From a virus (taxonomy: Duplodnaviria; Heunggongvirae; Uroviricota; Caudoviricetes): 5,684 bases of DNA. The first letter of the stretch is position 1. The number at the start of each line of letters is the position of its first letter. Of the stretch, positions 1-3,000 are shown piece by piece. The position numbers are program-made. The stretch is taken from IMG/VR virus record IMGVR_UViG_2695420699_000012; one strand, written 5' to 3'.

Positions 1-3000
1 TATCTACGGCAGCAAGCCAGTAATGGGTTAAGTGATAACAGGTGTCTGGAAATATAGGGGCAAATCCAGCAACATTATGTCATCAAAGAACAGAACCCGC
101 AGAACAACAACCCGCAACATCCGATTTCCAAACCAGATAATTGAACAAATTAACATCGCTCTTGACCTGAAAGGTTCAGGTAATTTTTCAGCGTGGGTTA
201 TTGAAGCCTGCAGAAGAAGATTAATTAATGAAAAATATTCTCAATTTGTACCCAACAAAGACAAACACGACCAGAGCACCTGTTCAGACAGGTTTACTTA
301 AACGACTTATATATGACACAAAAAGCGACCACTAAAGTCGCTTTTTCTTATGGTAACAGGCAATAACTCTCTCAGATATTTTTTAGCATTTTTTTGACCG
401 CGCGTTTCCGGACGTATTCTGTTCTCCTGTCCCTTTATATCGTCGGAATACCCGCCGCTCTTCAAATCCCATTCCCAACTCAGAATGTAGTCTGTTGACC
501 GCTTGTTTTATTTCGGTCAGGTTCACCGGTGAAACCGGAGTCCGGCGCGCCTTACGCAAACACTCTGCTCGTTTCTGTGCCGCCACTTTTCTTTTCTGGT
601 CATCACTTAGCTGTACCATCACTTTTGCCCATCGTTCAGCTGCTCTCCGGTACAGTCCTTTTTTCTCCAGACATTCTGCCACGTGATCATGTAGCATAAG
701 TGACCTCCGATTATCTACAGACTGCCATCCTGAATTTACCTTCCCTTAATGAAATAACAATAAAAAACAAACCACGCAAAAACAATAAAACAACACACAA
801 AAAAAACTAAATAATAAACAAAAATAATCACCTTATTTTATTATTTTTTGAGGGAGCAATTACTGAACAAAAAACGCTGACTATATACTCAAAACCAAAC
901 AACTATTCTGCCAATCAGGTATCATGGCAACACACGGAATTACCGTGTTTTTGCCTTCTCTGCCCATACAATACGGGCATATACTTCATTCTCTATTGTA
1001 ATATTTCTATCCATGTGCCCCACTCCATTTACCTGTAAATAATATTCAAAATATTTATCACAGAAATCGTTTTTGGCCATGAACTGAGCACACTATAAAG
1101 TCCGGAACTGACTCTTTGTTAAATTACCTTAACGTTACCAGTAACACCTTCATAACAAAACATCACGGTATACACTGGGTACGGATATATTCCTGTGCTC
1201 CTTCCAGTTGCTTCTGCATTGCCATCAGCCGTTCTCTGAGGATGAAATAATCCCGTTCAGCGGTGTCTGCCAGTCGGGGGCCGGTTGCATTATCCACGCC
1301 GGAGGTGCCGGTGGCTTCACGCACGGTACCGGAGCAGGTGGCGTTGATCCGCAGGCGCTTACGACCAGCGGCAACATCAGCACGCAGAGTTTCATTTTCA
1401 GCTCTCGCATCGGCTAATTCCCTCGAGTATCTGGCATCAAGTGCAGCGACATCACGCTGGCGTATCTGCATATCAGTAATTGTCGCGTTCGCCAGCTCCA
1501 GCTCACTGGCTTTTTTATCGCGCTGCTCTTTGTAGATGATGGCGTGATCACGGTAATGATTCAGCCCCAGACTAAGCGCACCACAGGCCACCAGCAGGAC
1601 AATGATAACCACGCACAGAACACGGTTCATATCACCACCAACGGATTGCCCAGACCAGAACAGCAATGGCCACAATACGAATGGCAAAAGCTGCCGCTCT
1701 TGTTAAATCCAGACTGGCTGGCGTCTCCACTTCAATGCCTTTCATAATGGACAACCTCAGAAAGAATCTTTTATACTTCCTCATAGGGAAAGTACCTCCC
1801 TACCCATAATTTCTCCCTTGCCTTACTCAAGGTCAGAAAACACAAAACCCCGCTTGCTGCCAACAAACGGGGTTTTTACTTTTATTCACTTAGGTTTTAC
1901 CAGTTTTCAGGATTTCGTGTTATCCACCCGCGTTGGCCAACGTCATTTTTCAGGAAAATATTCTGCTATCTGTCGATGTCCCAGCACGCCAGCGCGCTCT
2001 CCTGGTCACGCCGTGAGACCTGACCGTAGCAATTATTTGAACGGATACGGCAGTCTCTGCCACCGTCCTTAATCCACCAGCGAATCGCCTCACAGGCACC
2101 TTTTCGATCGCCTGCATTAATTCGTTTATAAAACGTCGACGGGAAGCACTTACCGGGGCCAATGTTGTACGGACAGAATGACGCGATCCCCGCTTTCTGG
2201 GGTTCGGTCAGCGGCACCCGGATGTTTTTCTCCACCCATGCCAGAGCCTTGTCACGTTCGATGGCATTAACCCGGTCGCATTTTTCCTTTGACAGCTTCA
2301 TGCCAGGAATAACAGGCTTACCATCCACCAGAATGGCACCACGGCAGATGGTCCAGATCCCCGCACCATCACGGTATGCCGTGGTGTGGTTACCTTCCTT
2401 TTCATCCAGAAACTGGTCGAGGATTTCAGGCGCAGAAGCACCTGCACCAATCAGCGCCAGAACGGCAGCCGACAGGCCGTATTTTATTTTTTCGTTCATG
2501 GGGATTTATCGATTTCTAATCCCTTGATATGTTAGGTATATAATCCAACACTCATGGTCGCTCTCATAAACATATCCCTTGAGACGCAGCAGATTACAAC
2601 AAATGAAGCCATATAAATGAACAGTAAAGAAAGTTTGCGCAGAAGATTTTTACAACTAATGACAGAAAACGTTAAATCAGAGTTACTTCTTCTGATGGCA
2701 GATAATAACGAAGCAACAAGCAGCATTCTTGCAGACCCTTACGGTAAGATCTCACATAAAACGCTGGATATTATTACCACAACATTAACACCGCTGATGC
2801 TTCAACGGCTGAAACATAATATCAACGCATGGGTTAATGAAGAATTAAGTCCTCCCTGCTTATGGGATTCTCGTTACGCATGTCAGCAAAAAATGCGAAT
2901 TTTCAACTTACTATCACCAAAGCTCAGGTAGCCATAAAATCCTGCCCTTCATGGCATACAGGATTTCAATGGAATCACAATGACCAACTCTTGCACAGCT

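Follow-up and report, generated by a model that had tools for sequence, protein, structure and literature searches.

Phage-21-type lysis cassettes, which combine a pinholin, a signal-arrest-release (SAR) endolysin and the spanins Rz/Rz1, are a textbook model of host lysis and the route by which Shiga toxin is released from the prophages of enterohaemorrhagic Escherichia coli (EHEC). The holin genes S21 (68/71) and lambda S (S105/S107) encode holin and antiholin from dual starts that lie 2-3 codons apart, and phiKT gp28, the disruptin, is a small accessory lysis protein. Lambda OOP, paQ and P22 sar are short antisense RNAs that arise from a constitutive promoter in or beside a phage gene, end at a terminator and damp the sense transcript; the genes on which they act, cII, Q and ant, are early or regulatory ones. 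A type I toxin-antitoxin pair of the Stx2 prophage Sp5, hokW-sokW, assists lysis and doubles phage release (PMC8621323). Here we analyse a 5,684-nt stretch of a tailed-phage genome (IMG/VR record IMGVR_UViG_2695420699_000012), referred to in its full length as the window, which represents the late region of an E. coli prophage of lambdoid, Stx-phage-like type whose lysis genes lie on the minus strand. Between the endolysin gene R and the spanin gene Rz of this window lies a 50-codon membrane-protein gene, preceded by a bidirectional terminator and faced by an antisense RNA. [quoted passage not shown] We give this proposal a probability of about 50%; toxicity of the peptide, its repression by the RNA and a role in lysis are the parts that we infer.

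The components of the proposed module, and the gap that holds them, are as follows, in window coordinates.

1965..1631: the 335-bp gap between R (upstream border) and Rz (downstream border)
1834..1886, both strands: bidirectional intrinsic terminator, stem 1844-1876 with 15 pairs, from a terminator scan and folding
1785..1843, minus strand: 5' untranslated region (UTR) of the small gene, as read from the sequence
1632..1784, minus strand: 50-codon gene for a putative small tail-anchored membrane protein, MRKYKRFFLRLSIMKGIEVETPASLDLTRAAAFAIRIVAIAVLVWAIRWW, PHROG 4493/1115
1748..1777, plus strand: sigma-70 promoter, -35 TGGACA at 1748-1753, 18-nt spacer, -10 TATACT at 1772-1777, 10/12 in a promoter scan
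1785..1886, plus strand: cis-antisense RNA of ~100 nt, 5' end measured in strain EDL933, 3' end predicted at the hairpin

The opposite-strand promoter and the transcription start site (TSS) at 1785 were missed by an earlier, sequence-only reading of this stretch, and they change the picture of the gap. The promoter sits within codons 3-13 of the small gene, and a lone 10/12 match is not significant by itself. The same arrangement is found at 99.5-99.8% identity in prophage Sp4 of the O157:H7 strain Sakai and in EDL933, for which starts have been mapped by Cappable-seq. Table S6 of that study lists an antisense TSS for gene 6270 at NZ_CP008957 position 1272098 (plus strand) in this lysogen in 8/8 conditions, namely cultures in LB, M9, acid and salt, each sampled in both exponential and stationary phase (PMC10469882). 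Gene 6270 is the 37-codon open reading frame (ORF) at 1271945..1272058 on the minus strand, and direct sequence comparison places the mapped start at window position 1785, an A found 8 nt past the -10 hexamer, one base outside the ORF's start codon. An RNA that begins there is complementary to the small gene's entire 5' UTR, Shine-Dalgarno sequence (1800..1795) included, and meets the hairpin after ~60 nt. The segment 1785-1886 folds at -26.5 kcal/mol (z -3.4).

This arrangement recurs in other copies of the gene. The promoter is identical in the phiP27-type copy, and in a subtype of the family that encodes 60 amino acids (aa) a 9/12 site (TAGTCA-18-TATACT) occupies the equivalent place, where it is the sole promoter-like site in 650 bp. 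In both the phiP27-type and the 60-aa-type copies a bidirectional hairpin follows the promoter, though the intervening UTRs are non-homologous. Synonymous third positions are variable at 1/11 in codons 3-13 versus 24/32 in codons 14-47 (Fisher p = 2e-4; pairwise p = 0.026), a comparison that rests on essentially two lineages. This pattern points to constraint at the nucleotide level over the promoter.

The gene on the other strand had been noticed by the sequence-only reading as a 37-codon ORF at 1745..1632. That ORF exists, but it is too short: it makes up the 3' portion of a gene of 50 codons (1784..1632), since the (A/G)TG at 1784 is where homology and the PHROG profile begin, and it has a Shine-Dalgarno sequence, GGGAGG, 10 nt upstream. 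Profile phrog_4493 matches the 50-aa protein with E 1.4e-24 (residues 1-50 against profile positions 1-54 of 56) and phrog_1115 with E 2.1e-11. The exact 50-aa sequence is AAG56189.1 / UniProt Q8X4B6, described as 'unknown protein encoded within prophage CP-933O'; the gene has been annotated as hypothetical since 2001, and no function is given in PHROG 4493, 1115 or 3246 or in the protein records. Gene callers shorten the ORF, with PGAP and the Sakai annotation calling just the 37-codon form (WP_000675931.1, ECs_1094).

Comparison of copies shows that the small gene is real and under strong purifying selection. The window copy and the phiP27-type copy differ at 26 nucleotides, 20 of them at third codon positions (binomial p = 7e-6), which yields pS 0.59 and pN 0.048 (pN/pS ~0.08). 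Five amino-acid changes result: Arg2Gly, and otherwise swaps among Ile, Val and Leu; changes in the transmembrane (TM) helix are conservative. About 96% of the collected copies are intact. Codon conservation and the state of the homologues, both named by the sequence-only reading as tests of its mini-ORF, thus come out in favour of a gene, and its other suggestion, a relic of rearrangement, is contradicted by the low pN/pS, the excess of third-position differences and the conservation of the ORF within unrelated flanks.

The predicted TM helix of the peptide is borne out by two methods. Kyte-Doolittle hydropathy reaches its maximum of 2.6 at residues 33-47, and AlphaFold2 gives a lower-confidence helix at residues 3-18 and a confident one at 23-49, with a predicted local distance difference test (pLDDT) score of ~95 for residues 31-50. 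A basic amphipathic N-terminal helix and a C-terminal TM helix ending in RWW fit a tail-anchored inner-membrane protein with a basic cytoplasmic N-terminus, as modelled. A conserved internal methionine, Met14 (ATG at 1745), has GAGG at 1758..1755, 9 nt upstream, and the rare AGG codon that forms this internal GAGG is invariant. Judged from this signal, Met14 could be a second start that yields 50- and 37-aa isoforms, reminiscent of the dual starts of holins and antiholins.

The small gene is found in more than one kind of lysis cassette. In cassettes related to that of the window, the R-Rz gap holds small single-helix ORFs of three families, all in the same orientation as the lysis genes.

Family A: PHROG 4493/1115, with 50-aa and 60-aa subtypes
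Family B: PHROG 4906, 43 aa
Family C: PHROG 6632, 32 aa

The window gene belongs to family A. In phiP27-like phages the family A ORF comes after the holins phrog_198 and phrog_217 and the M15 endolysin phrog_465, and before a gene for a 60-aa lipoprotein. The flanks of the window copy and of the phiP27-type copy are unrelated, and similarity starts at codon 1 and ends at the stop; the phiP27-type context supplies a GGAG 9 nt upstream of the equivalent start codon. An all-against-all HMMER comparison adds distant homologues with 37-58% identity that keep the basic N-terminus and a C-terminal (R/K)WW. In one metagenomic phage, the endolysin phrog_7 comes directly after two family-A-like ORFs, the holin phrog_920, a further small ORF and a family-C-like ORF with a terminal RWW. 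Three unrelated holin/endolysin cassettes therefore house the family: S21 pinholin/SAR endolysin/Rz, the phiP27 type and the metagenomic phage. The small gene moves as a unit between unrelated lysis cassettes. The sequence-only reading had suggested a small membrane lysis accessory factor, and with a selected membrane-protein gene that recurs in three such cassettes this is a reasonable reading.

The hairpin upstream of the gene, reported earlier as a bidirectional terminator-like structure at 1844-1877, is supported by both the terminator scan and folding. On each strand a GC-rich stem-loop is followed by a U tract, GUGUUUUCUG on the minus (lysis) strand (1843..1834) and UACUUUUAUU on the plus strand (1877-1886), consistent with predicted termination in both directions. 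The minus RNA folds at -21.8 kcal/mol (z -5.2) and the plus RNA at -14.2 kcal/mol (z -3.2), and in 5/5 aligned phages the hairpin is invariant or is held by G-U pairs on the minus strand. Another bidirectional hairpin occupies the equivalent place, just upstream of the small ORF, in phiP27-like cassettes. In lambdoid phages, late transcription is antiterminated by Q and passes intrinsic terminators, for which reason Rz should not be uncoupled from R by the hairpin in lytic growth; the earlier suggestion that the hairpin separates spanin from endolysin expression is unlikely for that phase. More plausibly, it insulates the ORF and Rz from transcripts that are not antiterminated, and ends the antisense RNA.

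At its 3' end the gene is joined closely to Rz. The ORF ends CGT TGG TGG TGA, followed by a T and then the ATG of Rz, so that a single nucleotide separates its stop from the Rz start and the last codons of the small gene form the Rz Shine-Dalgarno sequence GGTGGTGA. The overlap with the Rz ribosome-binding site and the coupling-like TGA-T-ATG junction can be read from the sequence just as originally described. A TGA-N-ATG junction is also found ahead of the lipoprotein gene of phiP27-like phages and at the end of family C ORFs. Translational coupling of the small gene to Rz is the best reading of this junction. Coupling by itself cannot account for its whole function, because selection acts on the amino-acid sequence and the RWW end is kept even without a gene close behind.

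We suggest that these parts could work together as follows. In the lysogen, the terminator would block stray sense transcription, and the antisense RNA would pair with any leaked mRNA and block its translation or trigger its decay, by the logic of type I toxin-antitoxin systems. Upon induction, Q-antiterminated late transcripts would pass the hairpin and outnumber the antisense RNA. The peptide would then be made together with Rz/Rz1 and act in the inner membrane, for example by lowering the membrane potential and so tuning the firing of the holin, or by helping otherwise in the disruption of the envelope. A more specific version, which we offer tentatively and consider rather unlikely as a whole, is that peptides with an RWW tail guarded by antisense RNA (PHROG 4493/1115, possibly 6632) are a new class of lysis-cassette component, a domesticated type I pair that serves as a lysis timer and couples spanin translation. 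Here the peptide would depolarise or perturb the inner membrane and help to set the moment at which the holin or pinholin triggers; an action independent of any particular holin would explain the portability among unrelated holin-endolysin-spanin cassettes.

Compared with described systems, the locus shares most with hok/sok, hokW-sokW included. Each comprises a small hydrophobic peptide of the inner membrane, <=60 aa long (50 aa here) and prophage-encoded in hokW-sokW as in the window, and a constitutive cis-antisense RNA over the translation-initiation region of the peptide's mRNA, whose start in our case comes from the EDL933 locus and whose function here would be the same. Unlike hok/sok, the gene lies within a late lysis operon between endolysin and spanin, with a terminator upstream and apparent coupling to Rz, and it has no sequence relation to Hok/Gef, to another Pfam toxin family or to an Rfam antitoxin RNA. 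Searches of Pfam, NCBIfam and Rfam gave no membership of the known toxin families (Hok/Gef, Ldr, Ibs, TisB, ShoB, Zor, DinQ) or of antitoxin RNAs. Classical type I toxins have a promoter of their own, whereas none was found for the small gene: there is no minus-strand site from the hairpin to the ORF, and the terminator is directly upstream. In our description the locus would work in the manner of a type I system without belonging to that class.

The remaining likenesses are partial. Unlike OOP, paQ and sar, the antisense RNA lies in a lysis cassette and faces a small membrane-protein gene. As with S21 and lambda S, a small lysis-cassette membrane protein has two potential in-frame starts with Shine-Dalgarno-like sequences, and the longer form would have more N-terminal positive charge; in contrast to these, the starts are 13 codons apart, the single TM helix is C-terminal and a holin is already present, and the protein matched no holin family in Pfam or PHROG. 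Its cationic amphipathic N-terminus recalls that of disruptin. Releasin, gp25 of phage Mu, is likewise a small protein encoded beside an endolysin or spanin gene, and it modulates or replaces one step in disrupting the envelope (PMC9239132). Unlike the settings of releasin and disruptin, to neither of which homology was found, the cassette here has a full set of pinholin, SAR endolysin and Rz/Rz1, with no step obviously missing. The small protein has no spanin features either: its TM helix is C-terminal with <=1-3 residues after it, there is no lipobox, and canonical Rz/Rz1 follows.

Several findings weigh against the proposed module. Antisense starts are very numerous in the EDL933 Cappable-seq set (PMC10469882), so that one alone is weak functional evidence, and for Sakai no Hfq-bound peak from cross-linking and analysis of cDNA (CRAC) has been reported within this gap. 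An internal start site or a recombination boundary could instead account for the low synonymous divergence in codons 3-13. In the locus of a distant homologue no promoter-like site was found, and the promoter scan found no minus-strand site between hairpin and ORF; among the starts listed for EDL933, none falls at 1272110-1272169 on either strand. The plus-strand hairpin is the weaker of the two folds, and the 3' end of the antisense RNA is a prediction only. A 'novel small gene', XECs106, with low RNA-seq and ribosome-profiling (Ribo-seq) signal was reported at Sakai 1184893-1184994, plus strand (Huecker et al. 2017), which corresponds to window ~1911-2012 (plus), antisense to the 3' end of R and just past the hairpin. 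We rejected XECs106 as a gene because it has no canonical start codon, and its signal hints at read-through of the antisense RNA past the hairpin. Finally, the ORF is optional, since phiP27 itself and K-12 Qin are without it, and one distant homologue adjoins a tail-fibre gene outside any lysis cassette, so that the association of the family with lysis cassettes, strong as it appears from these contexts, is not absolute.

These points bear on what else the locus could be. It is possible, if somewhat doubtful, that the gene encodes an ordinary late accessory protein of lysis, such as a timing regulator or an antiholin-like factor, that the antisense start is incidental and that the hairpin is merely a terminator or mRNA stabiliser after R. 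Recurrence in lysis cassettes and purifying selection would be expected from such a protein, the abundance of antisense starts and the lack of an Hfq peak here suit an incidental RNA, and the codons that the promoter hexamers overlap (K-Y-K, L-S-I) are under constraint in any case. An incidental RNA is hard to square with a start in all eight conditions that lies exactly 8 nt past a 10/12 match, with the retention of promoter, start position and downstream bidirectional terminator where the UTR is non-homologous, or with the unusual invariance of synonymous sites over the promoter. A second possibility, which we regard as unlikely, is cargo of the moron type, expressed in the lysogen from a permissive R-Rz slot, for example a small inner-membrane superinfection-exclusion protein. 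The slot is indeed mosaic, with three families of small TM ORFs, an antirepressor and a methyltransferase as alternative cargo, and the homologue beside the tail-fibre gene also fits. A moron has its own sense promoter upstream and a terminator downstream; here the terminator directly precedes the gene, which runs into Rz, no sense promoter-like site lies upstream, and no sense start appears in uninduced cultures among the starts listed. PADLOC gave no match, and a constitutive antisense RNA over the ribosome-binding site argues against expression in the lysogen.

If instead the plus-strand RNA were the main product, a trans-acting prophage small RNA (sRNA) or anti-sRNA of the AgvB/AsxR kind, the overlap with the ORF would be secondary. 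A constitutive start, a terminator with a U tract and the presence in the window of other Hfq-bound prophage sRNAs, such as EcOnc35 at 3601-3674, are in keeping with this. The missing CRAC peak, the lack of an Rfam match and an RNA body that differs wholly between contexts apart from the hairpin, which fits cis pairing and not a conserved trans seed, make it quite improbable. It is very hard to credit that the ORF is a translated leader only, at which re-initiation at TGA-T-ATG restores a coupling of Rz that the insertion of the hairpin after R had abolished: the stop 1 nt before the Rz ATG, the Shine-Dalgarno sequence formed from the last codons and the similar junctions in phiP27-like phages and family C suit a leader, and the low pN/pS, the restriction to conservative changes in the TM helix and the RWW end kept in a distant homologue with an 80-nt gap before the next gene do not. 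To the notion that the gap is a non-functional recombination relic with ORF and palindrome present by chance we give almost no credence. The junction is mosaic with several classes of cargo, some copies are disrupted and the palindrome is a chance match; the codon-position bias, the difference between pS and pN, the high share of intact copies, the conservation of the ORF in unrelated flanks and the existence of PHROG families and distant homologues contradict a relic for the ORF, and leave it valid for the palindrome only.

Searches for relatives of the RNA and the protein gave little. Rfam (E <=1) has no family match for the antisense RNA, the only hit being a sub-threshold match of the rimP leader on the terminator, and the non-coding RNA supplement of Neuhaus 2017 has no entry at these coordinates. 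An anti-sRNA of the AgvB/AsxR type in the gap was considered and rejected, as the sequences are absent and no EcOnc Hfq peak lies in the Sakai Sp4 gap. For the small gene, Pfam at E <=1 and NCBIfam each returned 0 families, and PADLOC gave no match for the small ORFs. A scan of species-representative genomes with the family alignment found no match, and a second scan of viral contigs returned the same close relatives as the first. The range of the family is narrow, comprising E. coli, Shigella and a few other enterobacterial prophages, with 14 Escherichia phage records. A literature search for ECs1094/1096 gave no papers, a ribosome-profiling paper on small proteins contained nothing relevant to this ORF, and the small-gene module is uncharacterised in the literature.

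The gap itself, 335 bp from the end of R at 1966 to the start of Rz at 1630, is present as the sequence-only reading described, but it is not unusual: the entire gap occurs in 670/5,426 complete E. coli genomes and the R-proximal half in 2,038 (BLAST). R and Rz were said to be normally adjacent. This holds for K-12 Qin, where rrrQ and rzpQ (R, Rz) overlap with zero gap, but not for this prophage lineage; Sakai Sp9 and Sp10 have an antirepressor gene and a small ORF between the two genes. The surrounding genes of the window are listed here.

5586..3841, minus strand: SASA/NanS-p esterase
3393..3187, minus strand: phage-21-type holin S21 (pinholin), PF04971
1966..2499, minus strand: R, phage-21-type SAR endolysin of 177 aa, PF00959 E 7.6e-24 and ORF list, annotated as lysozyme/endolysin in EDL933 and Sakai
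1878..1965, minus strand: conserved 3' flank of R, a probable inter-module linker, ~86-93% identity among phages with different downstream cargo
1163..1630, minus strand: Rz (i-spanin, 155 aa), PF03245 E 8e-49
1410..1225, minus strand: Rz1 (o-spanin) inside Rz, a lipoprotein ORF with lipobox LVVSAC
383-697, minus strand: PerC-family regulator just past Rz, PF06069 E 4e-44

The ~88 nt directly after R are retained even where the hairpin is missing, as in Sakai Sp10, and this flank looks, from its conservation, like a recombination linker between modules. It also contains CGTTGGCCAACG, a perfect 12-bp palindrome at 1931-1942. The palindrome had been pointed out by the earlier reading and is present, but it is noise. 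Perfect 12-bp palindromes number 3 in the window, where 1.35 are expected, at least one is found in 71% of first-order Markov simulations, and the copy at 1931-1942 is broken in GER2 and PhiR5_2. We therefore dismissed it as a binding site or recombination signal.

Viral contigs were scanned for the hairpin and the distance from the hairpin to the Rz start was taken. These distances are discrete, at 171/173, 210/211, 313, 341-375, 517 and ~1,300 nt. In the longest class, a gene for a 311-aa DNA methyltransferase-like protein lies between the small ORFs and Rz (L106/L116, ~400-1340 nt past the hairpin), so the R-Rz slot takes larger cargo too. Disrupted copies exist, for example of family C in Stx2_14040 and a few frameshifted ones of family A; frameshifted variants in the family B set make its codon-position statistics uninformative. 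In Stx-phage cassettes that carry an antirepressor, a family B TM ORF (48 aa, phrog_4906 type) lies directly upstream of Rz, at the following positions.

L286 8125-8271: family B ORF upstream of Rz, Sakai Sp10, ECs_1966
L287 6827-6973: family B ORF upstream of Rz, Sakai Sp9, ECs_5722

A small membrane ORF right before Rz thus seems to be a general trait of these cassettes, with different families filling it. In phage 569R3, whose gap holds families C and B, an opposite-strand promoter-like site with a TG extension (CTGACA-18-CACAAT; L002 1875-1904, plus) is aimed at the hairpin. To judge from this site, antisense control may not be restricted to family A.

The phiP27-like cassettes end with a lipoprotein of 60-62 aa that has the lipobox LVGC and three cysteines in a mature part of ~30 aa, and that belongs to phrog_7528 (unknown function).

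L059 1655-1837: phiP27-like lipoprotein gene
L290 2364-2552: phiP27-like lipoprotein gene
L291 2483-2665: phiP27-like lipoprotein gene

No recognisable i-spanin was found in phiP27-like lysis cassettes, and the phrog_7528 lipoprotein may either resemble an o-spanin that lacks its partner or disrupt the outer membrane in another way. The small ORF was considered as its i-spanin partner and rejected, as it has no periplasmic domain and phiP27 is without the ORF.

Further features lie elsewhere in the window. Positions 3601-3674 (plus; full unit ~3570-3685) are 100% identical to the Hfq-CRAC peak EcOnc35 at Sakai Sp4 1186583-1186656 (plus), which was flagged with a Rho-independent terminator and found in 5/5 data sets. 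This Hfq-bound sRNA of the prophage converges with the holin gene, and its sequence rules out AgvB or AsxR. Directly downstream, at ~3712-3840 (plus), is a second sRNA-like unit, whose promoter-like site spans 3712-3741 and whose terminator-like hairpin (3817-3831) precedes a U tract; this unit could be an sRNA of the Pas type or else a tandem paralogue of the EcOnc35 unit. Between holin and endolysin, on the opposite strand from both, lies a 104-aa ORF at 2617-2931 (plus; phrog_1853, unknown function). EDL933 has a Cappable-seq TSS at the equivalent of window position 2540 (plus) in 8/8 conditions (PMC10469882), and a start present in all conditions implies that lysogens express this gene, located within the lysis cassette, in antisense to the S-R transcript. 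Past Rz, the PerC-family gene is the counterpart of pchA in Sakai Sp4, a virulence-regulator moron.

The records of this protein family (PHROG 4493/1115/3246, ECs_1094, WP_000675931.1 and AAG56189.1) do not mention an antisense RNA. New here are that RNA, the portability of the module among lysis cassettes of unrelated type and the proposal of a lysis-associated module that resembles type I systems. Hundreds to thousands of E. coli genomes carry the module between R and Rz, and it is very widespread in EHEC prophages, yet annotated as hypothetical only. If our proposal is true, it would represent a new family of toxin and antisense RNA inside late operons, where searches for type I systems seldom look. 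If a conserved membrane peptide is indeed under antisense control at this place, the current model of lysis would be short of a regulatory layer, one that could affect lysis timing, toxin release and the stability of the lysogen.

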